Positions 3,955-61,600 of a stretch of DNA of 64,000 nt are shown piece after piece. The stretch is from contig OY740785.1 of NCBI GenBank assembly GCA_963514005.1, forward strand, positions 79,856,001 through 79,920,000, written 5' to 3'. How positions within the stretch are numbered: the first letter of the stretch is position 1; every line of letters starts with the position of its first letter. The DNA comes from Raja brachyura. Lineage: Eukaryota. Below the pieces are notes generated by a model. The model saw only the letters and a list, made by a program, of their open reading frames with translations, was not told where the DNA came from and did not search any database. Made by a program: the position numbers and the translations under genes.

Positions 3955-4426
3955 ACTTGCCTCAGTCTTCCTGATCTCCCGGTTGCCAAACACTTTAAAC
4001 CCCCTTCCCATTCCCACACCGACCTTTCTGTCCTCGGCCTCCTCCATTGCCAGAGTGAGGCCAAACACAAATTGGAGGAACAGCACCAATTTTGCTTTAA
4101 ACCCAGTCTTGCATCTCCCCCTCTCTCCGTCCCTCCCCACCCAAGTCATTTTTACTAGCTTCAAAGTCGTCCTGTTGAGTCTCCTTGTCTGTGACTCGTT
4201 TTCACCTAGACAACAGCTAACAATAGGCAGTTGCCTTTATCGTTGTCACTTTTTTGCATGTCTTTCAGTCATTAGTTCTATGTCACTCTATACCACTGTC
4301 TATATCCCTCGTTTCCCTTTCCCCTGACTCTCAGTCTGAAGAAGGGTCTCAACGCAAAACGTCACCCATTCATTTTCTCCAGGGATGCTGCCTGTCCCGC
4401 TGAGTTACTCCAGCTTTATGTGTCCA
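3955..4426 (+). mobile_element. Penelope-like element 3' fragment (GIY-YIG C-terminal remnant plus hammerhead-bearing terminal repeat)
   Basis: Frame-shifted translation gives LPVAKHF...SHSHTDLSVLGLLHCQSEAKHKLEEQH, typical of the C-terminal part of the PLE endonuclease. It is followed by agtctgaagaagggtctc...aaacgtcaccc. Confidence 0.8.
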
Positions 4427-11153: not shown

Positions 11154-11519
11154 GGCCGTTACAGTTTGGCAAGAGCGCCGTCGGCAGGAGCTGCCAGAGC
11201 AAGGTTGTGGACTACGACGAACTGCCTTAGGGGCTCCGACTCCGGATTTTCGTGAGGTTTACTCCAGGAACCTTTTCCATGACTGGATATGGCCACAAGT
11301 CAGTGGAGGTTTTAAGTCAGAGTTTTCCCTCTCCTATTGGACTGCCTTCCCAGGCTGACGAGCCCCGTCTGCCCGAGACTCGTGGGGGCTGGAGCGTGTA
11401 CCTTCCCGTGCAGGTCTATAGCACCTGCCCACTGCCAGACTCCAGTGGGGGAGCACAAACTGTAGATTTACCACCAGTTAGTCTGGGAATTCTGCCTGCT
11501 GAACCTTTGCCAGGGTAAC

Positions 11520-14093
11520 AGTAGTATTGGAGTTGGGGATGGCATCAAACAGGAAATTAGAAATGCGTGCAACAAGGGTAACACGGTTATAATGGGTGAC
11601 TTCAATCTGCATGTAGATTGGGTGAATCAAATTGGCAGGGGTGCTGAGGAAGAGGATTTCCTGGAATGTATGCGGGATAGTTTTCTCAACCAACATGTGG
11701 AGGAACCAACGAGAGAGCAGGCTATTCTAGACTGGGTATTGAGTAATGAGGAAGGGTTAGTTAGCAGTCTTGTTGTGCGTGGCCCCTTGGGCAAGAGTGA
11801 CCATAATATGGTTGAGTTCTTCATTAGGATGGAGAGTGACAAAATTAAGTCAGAAACAAGGGTTCTGAACTTGAACAAAAGTAACTTTGAAGGTATGAGA
11901 TGTGAATTGGCCAAGATAGACTGGCAGGTGATTCTTAAAGGGTTGACAGTGGATGTGCAATGGAAGGTATTTAAAGACTGCATGGATGAAGTACAAAAGT
12001 TGTTCATACCAGTTTGGCAAAAGAATAAATCGGGGAAGGTGGTGCATCCATGGATAACAAGGGAAATCAGGGATAGTATAAAAACAAAAGATGAGGCATA
12101 CAAATTTGCCAGAAAAAGCAGCCTACCGGAGGACTGGGAGAAATTCAGAATCCAGCAGAGGAGGACAAAGGGCTTAATTAGGAAAGGGAAAATAGATTAT
12201 GAAAGGAAACTGGCAGGGAACATAAAAACTGACTGCAAAAGTTTTTATAGATATGTAAAGAGAAAGAGACTAGTTAAAACAAATGTTGGTCCCTTGCAGT
12301 CAGAAACAGGTGAATTGATCATGGGGAACAAGGACATGGCAGACCAATTGAATAACTACTTTGGTTCTGTCTTCACTAAGGAAGACATAAATAATCTGCC
12401 GGAAATAGCAGTGGAACGGGGGTCAAATAAGATGGAGGAACTGAGTGAAATCCAGGTTAGCCGGGAGGTGGTGTTGGGTAAATTGAACGGATTGAAGGCC
12501 GATCAATCCCCAGGGCCAGATAGTCTGCATCCCAGAGTACTCAAGGAGGTAGCCACAGAAATAGTGGATGCATTAGTGATAATTTTTCAAAATTCCTTAG
12601 ATTCTGGAGTAGTTCCTGAGGATTGGAGGGTAGCTAATGTAACCCCACTTTTTAAAAAAGGAGGGAGAGAGAAAGCGGGGAATTACAGACCAGTTAGTCT
12701 AACATCGGTAGTGGGGAAACTGCTAGAGTCAGTTATTAAAGATGGGATAGCAGCGCATTTGGAAAGTGGTGAAATCATTGGACAAAGTCAGCATGGATTT
12801 ACGAAAGGTAAATCATGTCTGACAAACCTGATAGAATTTTTTGAGGATGTAACTAGTAGAGTGGATAAGGGAGAACCAGTGGATGTGTTATATCTAGACT
12901 TTCAGAAGGCTTTTGACAAGGTCCTGCATAAGAGATTAGCATACAAACTTAAAGCACACGGTATTGGGGGTTCAGTATTGATGTGGATAGAGAACTGGCT
13001 AGCAGACAGGAGGCAAAGGGTAGGAGTAAACGGGTCCTTTTCAGAATGGCAGGCAGTGACTAGTGGGGTGCCGCAAGGCTCAGTGCTGGGACCCCAGCTA
13101 TTTACAATATATATTAATGATTTGGACGAGGGAATTCAATGCAACATCTCCAAATTTGCAGATGATACCAAGCTGGGGGGTATAGTTAGGTGTGAGGAGG
13201 ATGCTTGGAGGCTGCAGGGTGATTTGGATAGGCTGAGTGAATGGGCAGATGCATGGCAGATGCAGTACAATGTGGATAAATGTGAGGTTATCCACTTTGG
13301 TGGCAAAAACATGAGGGTAGACTATTATCTGAATGGTGGCAGATTAGGTAAGGGGGAGATGCAACGAGACCTGGGTGTCATGGTACACCAGTCATTGAAA
13401 GTAGGCATGCAGGTGCAGCAGGCAGTGAAGAAAGCAAATGGTATGTTAGCATTCATAGCGAAAGGATTTGAGTATAGGAGCAGGGAGGTTCTACTGCAGT
13501 TGTACAGGGTTTTGGTGAGGCCACACCTGGAGTACTGCGTACAGTTTTGGTCTCCAAATCTGAGGAAAGACATCCTTGCCATAGAGGGGGTACAGAGAAG
13601 ATTCACCAGACTGATTCCTGGGATGTCAGGACTTTCATATGAGGAAAGATTGGATAGACTCGGTTTGTACTCGATGGAATTTAGAAGATTGAGGGGGGAT
13701 CTTATAGAAACCTACAAAATTCTTAAGGGGTTGGACAAGCTAGATGCTGGAAGATTGTTCCCGATGTTGGGGGAGTCCAGAACAAGGGGTCACAGTCTAA
13801 GGATAAGGGGGAATTCCTTTAGGATTGAAATGAGGAAAACATTCTTTACACAGAGAGTGGTGAGTCTCTGGAATTCTCTGCCACAGAAGGTAGTTGAGGC
13901 CAGTTCATTGGCTATATTTAAGAGGGCGTTAGATGTGGCACTTGTGGCTAAAGGGAACAGGGGGTATGGAGAGAAGGCAGGTACGGGATACTGAGTTGGA
14001 TGATCAGCCATGATCACATTGAATGGCGGTGCAGGCTCGAAGGGCCGAATGGCCTACTCCTGCACCTATTTTCTATTTTCTATGTTTCTATGT
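11520..14093 (+). mobile_element. Young 5'-truncated CR1 (HER1-like) LINE
   Basis: Uninterrupted ORF2, 3' UTR with hairpin-like segment and tttctatg tail. A short gtaac repeat sits at both junctions. Confidence 0.95.
11592..13994 (+). CDS. CR1 ORF2 (C-terminal part of APE endonuclease plus complete reverse transcriptase), 800 aa without stops
   Basis: MGDFN, SDH, SPGPD, YRPVSLTS, QHGF, YLDFQKAFDKV, SGVPQGSVLGP, KFADD motifs. Confidence 0.95.
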   Translation: MGDFNLHVDWVNQIGRGAEEEDFLECMRDSFLNQHVEEPTREQAILDWVLSNEEGLVSSLVVRGPLGKSDHNMVEFFIRMESDKIKSETRVLNLNKSNFEGMRCELAKIDWQVILKGLTVDVQWKVFKDCMDEVQKLFIPVWQKNKSGKVVHPWITREIRDSIKTKDEAYKFARKSSLPEDWEKFRIQQRRTKGLIRKGKIDYERKLAGNIKTDCKSFYRYVKRKRLVKTNVGPLQSETGELIMGNKDMADQLNNYFGSVFTKEDINNLPEIAVERGSNKMEELSEIQVSREVVLGKLNGLKADQSPGPDSLHPRVLKEVATEIVDALVIIFQNSLDSGVVPEDWRVANVTPLFKKGGREKAGNYRPVSLTSVVGKLLESVIKDGIAAHLESGEIIGQSQHGFTKGKSCLTNLIEFFEDVTSRVDKGEPVDVLYLDFQKAFDKVLHKRLAYKLKAHGIGGSVLMWIENWLADRRQRVGVNGSFSEWQAVTSGVPQGSVLGPQLFTIYINDLDEGIQCNISKFADDTKLGGIVRCEEDAWRLQGDLDRLSEWADAWQMQYNVDKCEVIHFGGKNMRVDYYLNGGRLGKGEMQRDLGVMVHQSLKVGMQVQQAVKKANGMLAFIAKGFEYRSREVLLQLYRVLVRPHLEYCVQFWSPNLRKDILAIEGVQRRFTRLIPGMSGLSYEERLDRLGLYSMEFRRLRGDLIETYKILKGLDKLDAGRLFPMLGESRTRGHSLRIRGNSFRIEMRKTFFTQRVVSLWNSLPQKVVEASSLAIFKRALDVALVAKGNRGYGEKAGTGY

Positions 14094-17456: not shown

Positions 17457-18618
17457 CATTGCTTTTTGAAGGCAATTTATGTATGCTCTAAAACTAAATT
17501 CATGTAATCAAACATAAAAGTCAATCGGACCAGAGTGGTATGATGCTCTGTTCTAGCAATGCAGCCTGAGAACTATCAGCCTTTTTTAGCAGATGATACA
17601 ACAGTACTCACTATTCCACAGAAGTAATCTGGTCAGTAACCACCTTGTATCCTTGTGTAAAACTAATTGATCTCCACAGAACCAAGGATGTTTATATCAT
17701 TCGACAATCAAGCACAACCAGGGATGGGCAATTAAATGTTGGTTCAGCTGCAAAACCCACGTCCCTTGATTGAAGAAATAAGTAGCGAAGCTTTAAAAAT
17801 TTGCTGACATCACTAATGATTCATAGGCTGTTGAATTAAATGCAATAAATATTTTTTCACAGAAACAGAAGAGACAGCAAATGCTGGAACATGGAGCAAG
17901 AAATACCTGGTCGAACTCAGAGGGACATGTTTCATCTGGGAAAGGAAGTGAACAGATGACGATTCCAGTTGGGACCCTTCATTCATTTGTTTACATTTCT
18001 GTTTGTGATACCTCACTGCTCTTATAAAGTACCCCTGCACACAATGTCCAAGAAAGAGTCCATTCAGCCCATTATGTTCTTGCCAGTGCAGAGGAGAGAG
18101 CCCGATCAGTCCCTTTCCCCTTGTCTTGATTCACATGTAGGCCTTAAACCTTCTCTCTGTCTTATATGATAAGTCAGAGATATCATATTGTCTTTTGATT
18201 CTTTTACCACTTATCTACGTCAAGGGGTAAGTTACAGTAGCCAACTAATTTACCAGCACATCTTTTGCATTGTGGGAGCTTTTTTTAAATGTGGCTTTAA
18301 AAGTAGGAAGTAAACATGTCAGAGAAAATAATAATTTGAGTGAAAGTTGTAAATGACTGATATTGAAGCTCCTCAGCCAGTGTGCCCAACCAACAGAATA
18401 TGACAGAATTATTGTGTTCAACTTTTGTCACCCTGCTATAAGGCAGATGCCATTAAGCTGGAAAGAATGCAGTAAATAATTATGAGATGTTTCCAAAACC
18501 CAAGGGACTAAGTTATGGGGAGAGGTTGGACAGGCTAAGACTTTCTTCCTTGGTGCATAGGAGACTGAGATGTGATCGGAAAGAATTGTATAAAATCATG
18601 GGGCATAGATAGGGTCAA

Positions 18619-18834
18619 GTGTAGGAAGGAACTGCAGATGCTAGTTTCAACCGAAGATAGACACAAAATGCTGGAGTAACCCAGCGGGACAGGCAGCATC
18701 TCTGGAGAGAATGAATGGGTGACGTTTCAGGTCAAGGCTTTCTGAAGAAGGCCCTTAACCTGAAACGTCACCCAATTCTTCTCTCCAGAGATGCTGCCTG
18801 TCCAGCTGAGTTGCTCCAACCTTTTGTGTCTGTT
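18619..18834. mobile_element. Palindromic Penelope-derived insertion with hammerhead core and 14-bp TSD
   Basis: atagatagggtcaa at 18605-18618 and 18835-18848. The arms at ~18659-18733 and ~18758-18831 are inverted repeats. Confidence 0.88.
18738..18774 (+). ncRNA. Putative minimal type I hammerhead ribozyme motif
   Basis: CUGAAGA (18742-18748), stem II AGG/CCU, GAAAC (18762-18766), then GUC cleavage triplet with palindromic ACGU in place of loop III. Stem I is weak and activity is not shown. Confidence 0.6.
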
Positions 18835-19870
18835 ATAGATAGGGTCAACACACACAGTCTTTTTCTCAGGGCTGGGTAAATCAAGAACTGGAGAGCATGA
18901 GTTTAAAGTGAGGGGGGAAAGATTTAAAAAGAATCTGAGGGGCTACCTTTTCACACAAAGGTTTGGTCATACATGGATTAAGCTGCCAGAGAAAGTGGAG
19001 GAAGTAGTTACAATAATAACATTTAAGTAATTTGGACAGTTACCTGGATAGGAATGGTTTAGAAGGATATGAGTCAAATGTGGGCAAATGGGACCAGTGT
19101 GGATGAGCAGGGCTGAGTTAGACCAAAGGACCTGTTTCCATGCTGTACGACTCTGTGACTCTATGACTTGATGCTTGCCTGACATTAGTTAGGTAATGAC
19201 TGAACTTTTCTATCATTCTTTTCGTACTTGTCCCTACATCATTGAATTTCACGGGTGCGTAAAACCCCACTGACCCCAGCTCTGAATATACTCAATGATT
19301 ATCCGTCTTCTGGGTTGGCAGCCTCCTTGAAAGAGAAACATTCCCACAGCCTAGACTTAGATGGGATACTCTTTATTCTGAGACTATAACTCTTTGTCCC
19401 ACATTCTTCAGCAAGAGCCGCATCCTTCAAGCATTGATTCCGTCAAGCTCGATCTTTGCAGATATAAGGCAGTGCTCTCTTCCTAATCAGACCTCGACAC
19501 AATTGTTCTTTGTGACTTCCACTGAAGACAGGCACAAAGCAGTTGTTTAATACTCTGTCATTTCCATGTTCTGCTTCAACGTTTCTTTTCTTTCTTTCTT
19601 CTAAAGAACCACCATTATCCTTGCTAATCTTTTCCTTTGTACAATGTTGCACAGACTCTCACAATTTTACGTTCCTTACTAGTTTACCCCACCCCCTCAT
19701 TCTTAATTTCTCGTTAATCCTTGGCCTTTAATACTCTGATTCCTCCACATTTTCACTCATATTAGCAACACGGAAATCCTCCATAACCCTCTCCCTAATT
19801 TTGTTTTCATGTGGAGTTTCTATTCTTCAAAATAATCTATATTGGTTAACAATTATGAATTATTCAGTTA

Positions 19871-20608
19871 AGGGCCTGTCCCACTGATGCGACTTTACAG
19901 TGACTGTCTTCGATCTTCAAACTCGAGGGCACTTGCCTGGAAAACCTCGACCGTCAGCAATGAAACCACGAGCTGGATCGACCGACCGCGCACACACACA
20001 CACAAACACATCGCAAAGGCGGGGGCCAGGGAAAGCGGGATAGCACTGTCTGAAATTCACACCCGCGATGAACAGGAATGTAAAATACGGCTGCACAGTG
20101 TAGGGTAAGCCTTTAGAGAGTGTGGGGGGGGGGGGGGGGGGAGCGAAGGGGAGGGAAGGGGGGGGAGAAAAGGGGGAGAAGGAGTGGAGACACTTTTAAG
20201 AAGCCAGACAACTTATAATAAAGTTTAGCGGGCATTTAAATTACTGGTCGGTTTTCCTTGGTCCTGAAAATTCCAATGAGCCAATTAAAATGCCCGGTCA
20301 GCGTAGGAGATTGCCTACGGCTGCCCTCGACTGCCTATAACTACATAGCGACCTCACTCCACTGCACTACGAGTTCAAAAGAACCATACTGACCAATTTT
20401 TACTTGCAGAAAATGTTTCAACATGCTGAAAATTTTTCCTCGACCAAACTGAGGCCGCGAGTATGCGGGAACTTCCCTCGAGCATGAAGGAGAGTTCCAG
20501 TGTCCTCATAGGACCTCCTGGGACCACATGTCGACCATGCTGCGAGTTTGAGTCAAGGGCAAATTCTTCTAAACTCGCAGATTAGGTCCCCGCAGTGGGA
20601 CAGCCCCT
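19871..20608. mobile_element. PIF/Harbinger-type MITE
   Basis: TIRs agggcctgtcccact / agtgggacagcccct; TTA on both sides (19868-19870, 20609-20611); no coding capacity. Confidence 0.88.
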
Positions 20609-40299: not shown

Positions 40300-42975
40300 T
40301 CATCATTCAACGAAGCACGCTTTAATGATAGCATTCTTGGTCAATGTTCCATCCTTCAAGAAAACTTTGACATTTCTGTTCATCTTTCCTCGGCTAAGAG
40401 CCACATATAGTTGTCATGCTGAAATACCGGTTTGTCAAGGTAGATCAACACCTTCTGCATTGTTTGTCCTTGTGCTTTATGGATCATCATAGCAAAACTT
40501 GATTGAATGGGGAATTGGCTCCGCTGAAGGGGAATGTCTTCACCTGTTAAATTGAGTGCTATCCTAGGAATGAGAACAACCATCTTTGAAGGCTCCCATG
40601 ATGATTCTTGCAACGATCATCCTCGTTCCATTGCATAGCTTTGGCGGTTCGAAGTTTCTCATTAATATGATTGGAGATCCTTTTTTCAACTCCAATTTGT
40701 GTAGTGATAATCCAGAGAGTTCAAGTGAATTGAGGAATTCTGTTGGGAAGTGCGTATCATGAGTTCCTTCAGTGACAGCTTTGAAAGAAAAGTACTCCTT
40801 AACAATTCCATGGATGCATCTGATGCATGCAGCCATGATCATATTGAATGGTGCTGCAGGCTCGAAGGGCCGAAGGGCCTACTTCTGCACCCATTTTCTA
40901 TGTTTCTATGTTTCTATGATCCTTCTCATGGTATCGTTGTGATGAACCAAGATACAATTGTTGGAGAATAATTCTGCAGGATTGATAAATGTGGGATAGA
41001 TTAAATCAATACAATCCTCCAGTGTTTCTGCTGATAGAAGCATGTCTTGTGGGATTTCAATTTCATCGTCTTCATTCTTTAAAATCTCGTCTTCTCAAAC
41101 TTTCAACAAAAATTAAGAATAGTCGCCTTCTCCCTCTGTCAATCGCATATTTGTGTGCAATTGAAACTTGGTGAAAAGTCTCCACAAGTAGGATTTCTTG
41201 ATGCAGGAATTTTCAACATTAGCATCATTTCCCCTTTTCACCACAGGAAGGAGTTGTCGAAAATCGCCACAACAAATGATAACAATACCGCCAAAAGGCT
41301 TAGTGTTGCTGCGGACATCTTGAAGAGTTCTGTCCACCGATTCAAAGCTTTCTCGCCTAATCGTTGGACATTCATCCCAAACAATGAGTTTCACTTGCCT
41401 CATGAAATGTGTCATCTTCGAGTTCTTATCGATGTTGCAGAAGTATCCTCGGCCACTTGGATGGGTATCTTGAATCGAGAATGTGCAGTTCTTCCACCAG
41501 GCATTAATATAACTGCTATCCCAGAGGATGCTACAGTAATAGCCACATCACCTTGACCTCTAACTTTAGAGAGGATCACATTGGTGATAAATGTTTTTCC
41601 TGTTCCTCCTGGTGCATCAATGAAAAACATTGAAGGGGGATTCCTTTTCAAGGAGTTTCACAACTGGTCATAAATTGCTCTCTGCTCAGCATTCAGCAGA
41701 GGCTCATTCTCGTCAACAAATTGCTGTTGTTCAGTTCTATCGTATTTCAATTCCTGCAGCAATTCTGTATTGTCATCATCAAGGTGCATCCTTCCATTTC
41801 TTGGTTGTGGCAAATTAAAGAATTCCATTGTTTTGTTGTAATTCTCAAGTCTTGAATATACAACAGAGCCTGATCATGATGCTTCTCTTCAATCATGATA
41901 TTAGGATCATTCATTGTGCTCCGTTCTTTTTCAAGGTCATCTTCAGACATTGAATTCTTGAAGTGATCCCATAATTGTCGAGGATTGTTGATCTCAGTAT
42001 TCGTCAACAAAACAGCAAACAAATCTCTCATTGCACTGGGGAGTCTTGTGTTCTCAGCATCTTCCATTGTTTGTTGCCAATGGTCATCAGTCTGCAACAA
42101 ACCTCTTTGTCTGCAGACGTCCTTGAAGAAAGGATAAATTTGTCCATCATGTGTCTTCAATGAATCAAAGGATACTGGCCCTTTTACGTGATGGTGAAGC
42201 AGTCTCAAGTAGTAGAGGTCACCACATTTTGGAGACACGGTATACACTCGTCCCAGAATGTTGGATTAAAAAATACCTGGATGATCTTGCACTCTCTTGT
42301 CGGCCTTCCTTCTTTGTCATCTCTTTTTGTTCCATGTGTAAAATCGGGAAACATCAGCGTAGTCGAGTGTTCTTGGAAATGGCTCTTGAGAACACAATGC
42401 CATGAATTCAGTTAAAGTCGTTCTCGTCATAGCATCATTGGTCCCTTCTTCAGCAGCATTGGGTCTGAGAAAAGCTCGTTGTTGTTCTGGTAGATGTACC
42501 TGGAGGCGAAAAACAGCGGGGAGTCTCTCATGAGTTAGAAATCCAAGAATTAATGCCAATGCTTCTGATGGACCAATGTATCTGCCAGTCAAATACTGTG
42601 AAATGTCATAACTCCTGCTAACTTTAAAATATGCTTGATCACTTCCCTTCATGGTGTACTTGATGACGTATTTGACTGACTTTATAGAGGAACATATCTC
42701 AATGTTGATGTTACATTTGAATAACTTCAATAGTTCAGCATTATAGGGCACCACACAAACAGAAGTGATAGGTCGATGCTGGCGACCTTCTTGATATCCC
42801 TGAAATCTTCCCATGTCTGGAGATCTTCTCCTGTGTAGAGCATGTGAATTATTCCCACACCTTGTGCTCGCGATAAATGGCTTTGGGAATCTCTTACTGC
42901 ATTTTCCTTTCTTCTAACACGGAGAGCCGTGGTTGCACAATGGTCCATGAATCTTGTGCTTGAGTTACAATTCAT
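40300..42975 (-). pseudogene. Helitron RepHel remnant (post-Rep linker plus PIF1-family helicase), fragmented
   Basis: VVPYN...INIEICSSIKSVKYVIKY, YYLRLLHHHVKGP, FIDAPGGTGKTF, VASSGIA...GGRTAHSRFKIP, WDECP, FGG...GDFRQLLPVV, LCNGTR, QFP...IHKAQGQT. Confidence 0.93.
40830..40918 (+). mobile_element. Very short CR1 3'-UTR insertion in the Helitron helicase
   Basis: cagccatgatcatattgaatgg...tttctatgtttctatg, near-identical to 14006-14092. Confidence 0.88.
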
Positions 42976-57292: not shown

Positions 57293-60247
57293 TTATACAT
57301 ACTCGCCATAATGGTCAGGTGGCTGCACAAGACGGCCAGAACGAGTCCACATCCCGCTAGCACCCCCTCCCCCCACGGGAACGAGAGGGACCGGCGCAGG
57401 TGGGGAAAACCTAGCAGGAGAGTCGCGGGGCAGGGAACGCAGCGGCGACGAGGGAGAGGAGGGGGGCGAGACGGCCGAAGAGACAGGGACAGCCACGAGA
57501 AGAACCACCGGGAGAGGCCGAGGGGACGGAGGACTGGGTAAGGCAGGAGGCGGCAGCGAGGACATGGGGGAAACATGTGGAACAGCAGGAGGGGAACGAG
57601 GCTCATTCACCAGGCGAAGGTGCTGACGTGACCTGCGGTAGACTGTGCCATCGTGGTTAACCAGGTAAGAACGAGGGGACCCGGCAGAACCGACGACAAC
57701 AGCAAGCCCATGATGACCAGAGGAAGAGCGCATACGGACAACCTGGGCAGGAGACAGAGGAGGAAGGACACGGCAGGACCTGTCATGGGATCGTTTCTGG
57801 ATAAACTGCTTGTTAGCAATACGCTCCTGGACCACAGCAGGTTTCAGCACAGAGGGGGCAAGGGTTTGTTGGGCAACCGGGATGGGAGGACGCGTAACGC
57901 GGGACATTAGGCGCTGCGCCGGGGACCCCAGGATATGGTCGCGGGGAATGTTGCAGAGGTTCAGGAGAGCAAGGTAAACGTCCGATCGTGAAAGACGACA
58001 ACGTTCCAGCAATCCCTTAGCACTGCGGACCGCACGCTCAGCCAGGCCGTTGCTCTGCGGGTACTCCGGGCTGCTGGTGTAGTGTCGAAAGTTCCAACGG
58101 TCAGCAAAGTCGTAGAACTCAGCGCTAGTGAACTGGCTGCCGTTGTCCGACTGCAGGCTTGCCGGGGACCCAAAAGTGGCGAAGTGACGTTGCAGCTTCT
58201 CAATGACGGCGGAGGATGACAGAGAGGACAGCTGGTCGACCTCAAACAAGTTCGAGTAGGAATCAACAAGCTCTAGGAAATGCTTGCCGCGCCATTCGAA
58301 AATGTCAGTCGCCAGCGCAGACCAAGGGAGGTCCGGGGCGGGTTGCTGCAAAAGGGGCTGCCGCTGCTGTTGCGGGGCGAGGCTGTTGCACGTAGGGCAG
58401 GACGATACCCTGTCCCGGAAGAAAGTGGCCATATCAGGCCAGTAAAACTGGCTCTGAGCGATGGAAAGAGTGGCTTCGGCCCCGAGATGGCCACGATGAG
58501 CAGTTTCAAAGTATTGTTCTCGTAGAGCTTCCGGCACCACCACCTTGTGGCCCTTCACAATCACTCCATCACGCGGCACCAGCTCGTCACGGACCAGGAA
58601 GTAGGGAGCTGCAGCAGCCGGCAGAGAAGAGCGTCGGTCAGGCCAACCCCGCTGAATGACAGCAGCCAGCTGTTGGAGCGAAGCGTCAGCAGCAGTGTGC
58701 TTAACCAGGGACTTCAACTGGTTGGAAGGCACGAAGTTCACATTCAACACTATCAAATCGGACGCATCATAAGGGTGACGGGTGGTGGATGCAAGTGGCG
58801 CCCGAGACAGCGTGTCTGCGATAAACATGTCCTTGCCTTTACGATACACCACATAGAAGGTAAACCGCTGTAGCTGAAGCATCATCCGCTGGAGCCGGGA
58901 GGAGGCCGCGTGAATCGGCTTACTGAGGATGGTGACCAGAGGCTGGTGGTCCGTCTCAATGGAAAAATGCGTGCCCAGGATATAGTCTTTAAACTTTGAG
59001 CAGGCGAACACAACAGCCAGCAGCTCTTTTTCAATCTGGGCATAGTGCTGTTCGGCAGGAGTCATCGTGCGGGACGCATATGACACTGGCAGTTGTACTC
59101 CATCATGGATCTGCAAGCAGGCGGCGCCCAGGCCAAACTTGGACGCATCGCAGGTGATGACGATGGGACGCTTGAGGTCGAAGTACTTCAGCGTCGGGGT
59201 GCTGATCAACTTGGACTTGAGGACATCGAAGGCATTCTGGTGTTGCGGGAACCAAGCCCAGGCAGTGTCCTTTTTTACCAGGTCTCTCAGGGGAGCGCAC
59301 AATTCACTCAAGTCAGGGATGAACTTCCCCAGGTAGTTGACCATGCCCAGGAAACGCTGGAGGCTTGGCACATCCTCAGGAGCAGGCATCGCAGCTGTCT
59401 TCTGCGGGTCGGCCTTCAGCCCGGACGCTGTGAAAACATGCCCCACGTAAGTGACCTCTGGGACGCGAAACCGGCACTTTTTTGGGTTGAGCTTTAGGTT
59501 GACCTCCCGGGCTCGATCCAGGACTAGCCGGAGGTTGTGGTCATGCTGCACGACATCCTTTCCATACACTAGAATGTCGTCAACAATGATGGCGCACGGG
59601 AGCCCCGCGAACAGCTGTTCCATCGTTCTCTGAAACACCTCACTAGCAGAGTTGATCCCGAACGGCATGCGCAGAAAACGAAACCTCCCGAAAGGCGTGC
59701 CGAATGTCGTCAGGTATGAGGACCGTTCATCTAGTGGTATTTCCAAAACGAACTCTTAGCGTCCAGAACCGAAAACATAGTGGCCGGGCCGACTTGTGCA
59801 GCGACATCTTCGACAGTTCGCATAGGATAATGCGGGCGCTTGATAGCCAAGTTCAAATCCTTTGGGTTGATGCAGATCCGCAGCTCGCTTTTGTCCTTCT
59901 TCGCAGCGACAACCATGGTGGAGACCCACTGAGTTGGCTCGCTCACTTCCGTCAGGATGCCCATGGCCACCATATCACGGAGTGTGGACTCAACTTTGTC
60001 TTTCATCGCGAACGACACTCGGAACGGGGAGGGCGGATGACAGGTTCGATATCCTGATTGAGAGCGATCTTGTAGCTGCAGGGGAGCTTCCCCAGCTTGC
60101 TATCAAAACGGTCTGGGTACTCGATCAGTGGGTCTAGGGGTTGCTGCACCATGCGGATGTCACGATGGAAGTTAACCAACCCAAGGTCCTGACAAGCCTG
60201 AATACCGAGCAGGGGTGCGCATTTGCCGTCCAGTAGGAAGAAAGAAA
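57293..60247 (-). pseudogene. Gypsy pol (RT, RNase H, integrase) with two frameshifts near 59745 and 60020
   Basis: LDAKSSFW, TPFGRFRFLRMPFGI, IIVDDILVYG, TCDASKFGLGA, YAQIEKELLA, ETDHQPL, HRGH...CPTC, SDNGSQF, SNGLAERAV. The 817-aa stretch is open. Confidence 0.92.
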
Positions 60248-60448
60248 GGGGGACTTCCGGTGGCGCCATGTTCTAGGAGAGAACAGCGCCAGACCAGCTC
60301 TTAAAAAATCTGAAAAAAAAACGGGGTTAGAGGAGGCTGCTAACGCTACTTACCGTAGGAGATCGATTTTAAACGGCTCCGGGTGCGATTGTAAGCTGCG
60401 TGACGTCATCAGGCGCGCGACTTTAGCGACTCCGGTAAGAAATTTAAA

Positions 60449-61600
60449 ATGAATCCCTCCTCCCCCACACAGCCGAAGAAAAGCTCCAGAAGGGAGGTAG
60501 GCCCCACCAAAGCTTCAGGCTCGGGACTGGCTGCCTCCCAAGAAGAGATTTCACTAAGAAAAGCTGAGATGGAAGATCTTAAAAAATCTCTGCTGGCTGA
60601 TATGAGGAAAATGCTGAAGGAAACACAAACAGAAACACAAAAAGAAGTGAAGAAAGATTATAAAGAAATTAAGGATGAAATGAAAGCCTTAAAAACGGAT
60701 ATTCGAAAAATCAAAGAAGAATTAATGAGAGAAGTTAAAGAAATGGTAAAAATCATGATGAATGAATGGAAAACAGAACTGGAGGAGGACATACATACTC
60801 AACTGATTGAGGTAACTGATAAGATTGCTGGGATGGAGCGAATGATGGAAGAGATGATGGATGCGAAAATAGAGGCGAGGTTAAGCCCTATGTCAACTGT
60901 ACTGGATCAACAAAATGATACGATTAAAGAATTAACTGATGCTGCTCTAACAACTGCAAGGGAGAATGAGAAGATAAACGAAGAGAACAAACGCCTCTCT
61001 GAATTAGTACGTAAAATAAATGAGAAATGTATTGATTTGGAGGGGCGGCAAAGACGTAAGAATTTGCGCATAGTAGGTCTGCCTGAGGGACGCGAAGGAA
61101 ACCATGACCCACGTAAATTCTTTGCTAAACTCCTGAAGGACATTTTGGATCTGGATGAAGAGCCCCTGTTGGGCCGAGCCCACAGGGCTTTAAGACCGGC
61201 TTCTAGGAGTGGTGCACCACCAAGACAAGTAATTGTAAAGGTGGTTTATGACGGCGTCTTTGAAGATATGATGAAGATAATAATAAGAAAAAGAAATCTG
61301 AAATACGAAGGAGATAACATCAGTATCTTCAGAGACTACCCGGCCGAAGTGGCTAAAAGAAGAGCTCTATTTACAGAAACAAGACGCATCTTGAGAGATA
61401 TAAAAGGAAAAAAGGAGATCAGATATGGTCTGGTGTACCCGGCAATACTTAGAGTTACCTACGAGAAGAAGGATCTTCGTTTCACCAAGCATACAGCGGC
61501 ACTGGAATTCGCTCGGAAAATACAGAAGAAGGTAGAAGAAGGAGAAGAAGGAGAGGCAGAGGAAGAAGGAGCAGACCCGACAGGAGTAATTGATGAATGA
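60449..61600 (+). CDS. L1 ORF1p (coiled coil, RRM, CTD; transposase_22-like), 383 aa
   Basis: DLEGRQRRKNLRIVGLPE, RAHRAL, FRDYPAEVAKRRALF, YPAILRV. Confidence 0.95.
   Translation: MNPSSPTQPKKSSRREVGPTKASGSGLAASQEEISLRKAEMEDLKKSLLADMRKMLKETQTETQKEVKKDYKEIKDEMKALKTDIRKIKEELMREVKEMVKIMMNEWKTELEEDIHTQLIEVTDKIAGMERMMEEMMDAKIEARLSPMSTVLDQQNDTIKELTDAALTTARENEKINEENKRLSELVRKINEKCIDLEGRQRRKNLRIVGLPEGREGNHDPRKFFAKLLKDILDLDEEPLLGRAHRALRPASRSGAPPRQVIVKVVYDGVFEDMMKIIIRKRNLKYEGDNISIFRDYPAEVAKRRALFTETRRILRDIKGKKEIRYGLVYPAILRVTYEKKDLRFTKHTAALEFARKIQKKVEEGEEGEAEEEGADPTGVIDE

Follow-up and report, generated by a model that had tools for sequence, protein, structure and literature searches.

The closest described counterparts of the locus reported here are insertions of endonuclease-bearing Penelope-like elements (PLEs). 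As set out in the accessible text on Pen2a of Adineta vaga, these carry head-to-head terminal repeats (pLTRs), a tail of 30-40 bp at one end, a target-site duplication (TSD) and short palindromes at the junction; the layout of inverted pLTR, one-sided tail and TSD is thus already published (PMC3846280; PMC8557442). In Poseidon PAc of Anolis carolinensis, an ORF with a reverse transcriptase (RT) and, at its C-terminus, a GIY-YIG domain is accompanied by a hammerhead in the pLTR and by two 3′ end sites with a 30-40-nt tail between them. In the available parts of that report, the anole protein cuts and extends both strands in vitro, two internal start sites bound the tail, and the reaction does not need hammerhead cleavage (PMC11167929). 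Metazoan PLEs carry minimal type I hammerheads with an extra base between positions 9 and 10.1 and a palindromic, minimal helix III, and the accessible sections of the survey mention motif pairs lying 100-700 bp apart on opposite strands (PMC4209133). Finally, non-LTR retrozymes are described in the available portion of a preprint as non-coding, PLE-derived and hammerhead-bearing units, repeated in tandem from head to tail so that an array contains at least two complete ribozymes (bioRxiv 10.64898/2026.07.22.740005).

Here we describe a 216-bp insert in a 64,000-nt stretch of the Raja brachyura genome (the window, to which all coordinates without a locus label refer; L numbers designate loci fetched from the same genome). 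It is almost certainly a decayed, ORF-less head-to-head pair of Penelope-like terminal repeats, and an ordinary locus of its kind. Like the endonuclease-bearing PLE insertions, it has a head-to-head inverted 5′ pLTR, a tail of 30-40 bp at one end (18619-18658) and a TSD. The skate palindromes differ from those of A. vaga, as far as the accessible text describes the latter, in having no ORF between the repeats, in the length of the TSD (mostly 13-17 bp, against 8-10 bp) and in number (some 10^5 copies by our estimate, compared with a few; PMC3846280). Palindromes devoid of an ORF are likewise not described for PAc in the available parts of that report (PMC11167929), and a literature search that covered few subscription journals returned no ORF-less pLTR palindromes at such scale in cartilaginous fish. 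With its head-to-head layout and its single, damaged core, the insert does not match the non-LTR retrozymes.

Results

Structure of the insert and of its empty site

The insert is bounded by exact 14-bp direct repeats (18605-18618 and 18835-18848), and the locus reads as follows.

18451..18604, plus strand: host, a decayed CR1-type LINE, ORF2 C-terminal region, left part (outer edge approximate)
18605..18618, plus strand: left copy of the TSD, an exact repeat that is single-copy in CR1 paralogs
18619..18658, minus strand: 40-nt PLE tail (the tailed end), on the left side only
18659..18736, minus strand: left pLTR arm, without the first half of the hammerhead core
18737..18740, no strand: head-to-head junction, where the aligned arms stand 4 nt apart
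18741..18834, plus strand: right pLTR arm, tail-less, ending at the untailed site (consensus 5-95, 87.9%)
18742..18769, plus strand: remnant of a minimal type I hammerhead, core letters kept, nominal cleavage after 18769
18835..18848, plus strand: right copy of the TSD, at a junction that contigs from organisms B and D cross
18849..19170, plus strand: right part of the same CR1-type LINE remnant (outer edge approximate)

When the insert and one TSD copy were removed, 23 of 66 BLAST matches among the fetched loci crossed the restored site, at about 66-74% identity and with RT motifs upstream in 3 (among the 12 matches listed). Since LINE paralogs run through the restored site, the element made a clean insertion into the 3′ end of a CR1-type ORF2, and the initial annotation of a 216-bp insert with a perfect 14-bp TSD in an old CR1 is confirmed. 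We take the host to be CR1-type from its ORF2 C-terminal and RT motifs; a Pfam search with the short RT and CR1 pieces (the CR1 piece being 45 aa long) gave no match.

The same annotation saw two inverted copies of the Penelope repeat in a long stem. The stem is there, with inverted arms of 79 nt each (18659-18737 and 18753-18831) and a complementarity of 89%, but the copies are unequal: a tail and a minus-strand left arm lacking the first half of the core are followed by the 4-nt junction and a tail-less right arm. Tail and left arm together correspond to positions 18-135 of the pLTR consensus built in this analysis, at 95.8%. The RNA of the insert folds at -148.8 kcal/mol (z -17.1), and none of 200 shuffles was as stable, in keeping with the hairpin proposed initially.

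Contigs of two related organisms, B and D, span the right insert junction, and organism D differs from the window flank at 32 of 694 positions. The insertion therefore predates the split from organism D, whose contigs bridge this junction. No joint skipping the insert was found among the joints listed from eight runs, in which the left-junction contigs enter the insert by 30 nt or less, under the bridging limit. Many contigs from other runs start at 18619 and at 18653-18655.

By eye, those long frames of the window that can be recognised resemble mobile-element or low-complexity sequence. In total, 12 pLTR matches lie in the window; at 3970-4424 the end of a PLE GIY-YIG domain is followed by a UTR and then by the same pLTR as in the insert. 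An 842-aa frame at 11466-13994 (plus strand) resembles a CR1-type ORF2, and we take the broken frames at 41083-42913 to resemble a Helitron Rep/PIF1-type helicase, the 820-aa frame at 57293-59755 (minus strand) an LTR-retrotransposon pol, and the 398-aa frame at 60404-61600 (plus strand) an L1-type ORF1. At 19870-19886 a terminal inverted repeat begins that is similar to the one in a palindrome-carrying element of about 690 bp described below.

The repeat belongs to an endonuclease-bearing Penelope-like element

In loci fetched from the same genome, the repeat sits 3′ of GIY-YIG and RT remnants. An RT query of this genome returned copies with open frames of more than 1,100 aa; of 16 that were fetched, two (L140 and L144) have a pLTR-ORF-pLTR structure, with frames of 1204 and 1221 aa. 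Both frames match the RT and GIY-YIG families of Pfam, below the Pfam cut-offs in either case, and contain the expected motifs, while a PDB search returned nothing at E 1 or less. The tailed arm of the insert agrees with ORF-linked pLTRs at 72/84 (L046), 89/111 (L033), 92/115 (L140) and 63/68 positions (window 4332). As it flanks RT and GIY-YIG frames, the repeat is the pLTR of an endonuclease-bearing PLE, and the assignment to a hammerhead-bearing Penelope terminal repeat made at the outset is borne out by these copies. The domain order would fit the Penelope/Poseidon clade.

L140:3817-7428 and L144:3714-7376 (minus strand) represent a young Penelope family, with repeated segments more than 99% identical in both loci, and this family is probably recently or still active. 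Its ORF starts just after the tail, whereas in PAc the start is inside the hammerhead, according to the accessible text (PMC11167929). Inverted insertions of kilobase length (L140, L142, L151, L152) show, by eye, the same tailed and untailed ends with TSDs of 13-16 bp, and the ORF-bearing copy L148 also starts at the pLTR 5′ boundary of the palindrome arms.

The hammerhead is decayed

The annotation had described an intact hammerhead core and a potentially self-cleaving RNA. The core letters are indeed kept (18742-18748 and 18762-18769), but the surrounding helices are disrupted: of the 5 pairs of helix II only 2 remain, with a G-U at the base, and of the 2 pairs of helix I only 1. A helix I of only 2 bp in cis is a property of the family, as in D. 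virilis, while the loss of G10.1-C11.1 and of most of helix II sets the insert apart from the PLE hammerheads characterized in the accessible sections of the survey (PMC4209133). In isolation, the helix II segment is unfolded (0.0 versus -3.6 kcal/mol). In the predicted fold of the full RNA, 18762-18769 has an unpaired probability of 0.003 or less, the cleavage region is paired at more than 0.99, and freeing the core from the hairpin would cost 26 kcal/mol. The insert holds one core on the plus strand and none on the minus strand, and thus no second same-strand core for a dimeric fold. No Rfam family scored at its gathering threshold in the whole window. The ribozyme of the insert is predicted from these folds to be inactive, and self-cleavage as initially suggested finds no support.

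A functional RNA kept by selection, either as a self-cleaving ribozyme or as the hairpin precursor of small RNAs, would agree with the very stable predicted hairpin, the preserved core letters and the presence of the insertion in organisms B and D. However, besides the broken helices and the buried core, the insert has decayed to the median of its class, and even intact minimal PLE hammerheads show no monomer cleavage in the available part of the survey (PMC4209133). We find selection for an RNA function hardly credible.

The palindromes are an abundant class, probably without a master copy

Queried with the insert, the genome yielded 5484 candidates at first look, of which the best 40 were scored. 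The 28 other loci listed mostly had both outer ends in common with the insert, whereas their apexes differed. In an unbiased sample of 96 evenly spaced 10-kb stretches (960 kb) we counted 383 pLTR matches. Adjacent pLTRs at most 30 nt apart were head-to-head in 67 pairs, tail-to-tail in 4 and in tandem in 11; tail-to-tail joints were seen in other runs too. Forty-nine near-complete palindromes were found, 39 tailed/untailed, 9 untailed/untailed and 1 unclear, from which we estimate, by extrapolation from the 960 kb, about 140,000 such palindromes per genome. A TSD flanked 21 of 47 (two of the 49 lay too close to where their locus ends), compared with 3 of 329 shuffled pairs, and the hammerhead motif was fully intact in only 6 of the 49. 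Palindromes occur in the young, middle and old pLTR subfamilies. Subfamily variants are common to both arms in 346 of 421 cases, against 0.55 when shuffled. The insert falls in the middle one of these groups, and the identity of 0.885 between its arms equals the sample median.

Two further arrangements were noticed. At L038:8346-8728, two palindromes lie in a row with a few bases of duplicated target between them, which suggests repeated insertion at one site. At L050, L059, L080, L098, L111 and L151, an untailed/untailed palindrome lies inside an element of about 690 bp, with about 700 bp of common flank. This element has terminal inverted repeats of about 16 bp and apparent 3-bp TWA target duplications, and accounts for 5 of the 49 sampled palindromes; we take it to resemble a non-autonomous PIF/Harbinger transposon.

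To look at recent insertions we used exact patterns, which matched 1962 young palindromes with 10-40 nt between the cores, 1776 with 41-52 nt and 627 with 53-82 nt; in the subfamily of the insert itself, about 1,520 exact-pattern palindromes have 20-50 nt between the cores. The first 50, 30 and 15 of the three young classes by position on one contig were examined, and removal of five passenger copies and one duplicate left an independent set of 89. Eighty-three of these had one tailed and one untailed end, 1 had two tails and 5 were unclear. An exact TSD of at least 10 nt was present in 73 of 89 (13-17 nt long in 58 of them), against 4 of 475 in the null. Distinct junctions numbered 39 in the 50, 17 in the 30 and 10 in the 15 copies. 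With tailed and untailed ends, TSDs of their own and this many junctions, the young palindromes likely form afresh at each insertion. Extra C residues often stand between the untailed end and the TSD (L188, L191, L210, L251), possibly through slippage on a short C run at the start site.

These junctions bear on the initial suggestion of a unit mobilised in trans. In such a reading the palindrome would be non-autonomous, in the manner of a SINE or a retrozyme, and the Penelope enzyme would copy it as a unit from a master. Outer ends common to most look-alikes, the recurrence of some apexes and a junction at L179 similar to that of the insert would speak for it. However, the 50 young copies of the first class have 39 junctions; the apex seen most often is present in either polarity (6 and 3), its flanks being unrelated but for one duplicated pair; and palindromes are found in each pLTR subfamily. 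Both shared-apex sets that we followed have common flanks and are passengers of other repeats, which rules them out as a master family. One of them, a young palindrome with a fixed 53-nt apex and identical flanks at six places (L251, L257-L260, L264), spreads inside another recent repeat. The best other match to the apex of the insert reaches 86% (best 40 of 45 candidates), and among the best 40 candidates scored none combined a shared junction and private mutations with independent TSDs; a small sub-family could remain. With junctions varying by copy, mobilisation of a master unit is not supported and seems to us very improbable.

Arm boundaries

The arms stop at a sharp place. In the unbiased sample, 51 of 61 palindromes have a longer arm that begins no later than pLTR position 10. 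Among the young copies, 70 of 89 have the end of the longer arm within positions 1-6, and in 3 of 89 this arm extends at least 4 nt into the upstream UTR, the pattern used demanding that both arms reach position 26 with a gap of at most 82 nt and so excluding longer, UTR-bearing arms. The annotation had offered extreme truncation of a Penelope insertion as another origin, and an ORF-less remnant of such an insertion is indeed likely, but its arms stop at a common boundary and not randomly. Central deletion of DNA palindromes is known, long inverted insertions with the same ends exist and the insert is old, so that a short stub could be left by deletion within a longer inverted insertion, or by random extreme 5′ truncation. 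Against this, the young copies are already short, and remains of the UTR or ORF would be expected more often than in 3 of 89. Either route is distinctly improbable.

A second possibility is folding back: a cDNA or antisense template would snap back at a small palindrome and prime itself, and endonuclease resolution would leave the tail on one side. In the accessible text, the A. vaga study proposes self-priming on an antisense template for head-to-head PLE junctions (PMC3846280), and an overview ascribes the tail to resolution by an endonuclease (PMC8557442). In our data, the nearly constant concordance of the arms (82 of 86 young copies at one polymorphic site) and the overlaps of 1-8 nt at the junctions of 44 of 95 young copies speak for it. 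However, folding back has to start from the tailed strand, whose arm would then extend no less far 5′ than the other, and yet the untailed arm is the longer in 42 of 95 young copies (the tailed one in 39, with 14 equal) and reaches further 5′ in the insert as well (position 5 versus 18); this disfavours a plain snap-back. Moreover, many solo copies have their 3′ end at this same untailed site, the 3′ ends of pLTR copies in the 960-kb sample peaking at 91-101 and 126-135. Overall, we hold a fold-back origin to be unlikely.

Discussion

We consider that the palindrome probably arose during insertion itself, both strands of a staggered cut having served to prime reverse transcription. The endonuclease of the element would nick both strands about 14 bp apart, and one 3′ end would prime at the start site at the end of the tail, the other about 35-40 nt upstream, matching the pair of start sites described in vitro for the anole element (PMC11167929). 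Both cDNAs would copy the 5′ pLTR of one RNA or of sibling RNAs and run off the RNA 5′ end, a few bases before the hammerhead. The cDNA ends would then be joined, often via short self-complementary bits of the pLTR, giving a new apex each time, and the insert would since have decayed like its peers. In twin priming of L1, the second strand is likewise primed at the opposite nick, the products are joined by microhomology and a TSD results, but a different upstream part of the RNA is inverted; here both strands would copy the same stretch and hence yield a palindrome.

The stop of the arms a few bases before the hammerhead likely marks the 5′ end of the RNA, although strong pausing of the RT, or 3′ splicing at this place, could also create the boundary. 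A pyrimidine tract plus AG is found there, a sequence that, in our estimation, fits both the initiator and the 3′ splice site consensus. For D. virilis, an intron ending at the 5′ side of helix I (PMC4209133) and a start site 46 bp before that helix-I intron (PMC2377424) are given in the accessible portions of the reports. The hammerhead cleavage site as template end found no support in the small unbiased sample: 2 of 61 palindromes have a shorter arm beginning at positions 31-35, with no pile-up. That the young set has none of these starts is an artefact of the pattern used to collect it. Looking for a cap-derived G, we found an extra base at the boundary that was C in 37, G in 15, A in 5 and T in 1, counts confounded by passengers and microhomology. 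As to a target preference, the base after the tail is A in 46 of 61 and the sequence ATT in 9 of 61, but in the young family the template, too, continues with A. Solo copies starting from the boundary without a recognised UTR, a class mixed with diverged UTR-bearing copies, have a TSD in 23 of 104 cases, against 5 of 520.

Several observations weigh against two-strand priming. The RNA 5′ end would be read solely from the arm stops, one apex recurs in 11 of the 30 copies of the 41-52-nt class, and the junction at L179 has the same length as that of the insert, whose apex may have been altered after insertion.

The locus itself, an old decayed copy among very many, is of little weight. The class to which it belongs, in contrast, bears on the way in which inverted repeats and one-sided tails are produced by Penelope-like elements, a point left open in the accessible text of the overview and of the anole study (PMC8557442, PMC11167929), and the paired-end rule together with the sharp 5′ boundary gives predictions testable in the published in vitro system. 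The long hairpins, which we estimate at 10^5, could also supply double-stranded RNA in large amounts where they lie inside transcripts. Whether these approximately 10^5 palindromes amount to a fossil library of Penelope insertion, recording two-strand priming, one strand per start site and a transcript starting 0-5 nt before the core, is a question on which our judgement is evenly balanced. If they do, a single reaction would account for tail, inverted pLTR and TSD alike, and the end of the template would be set by something other than hammerhead cleavage.
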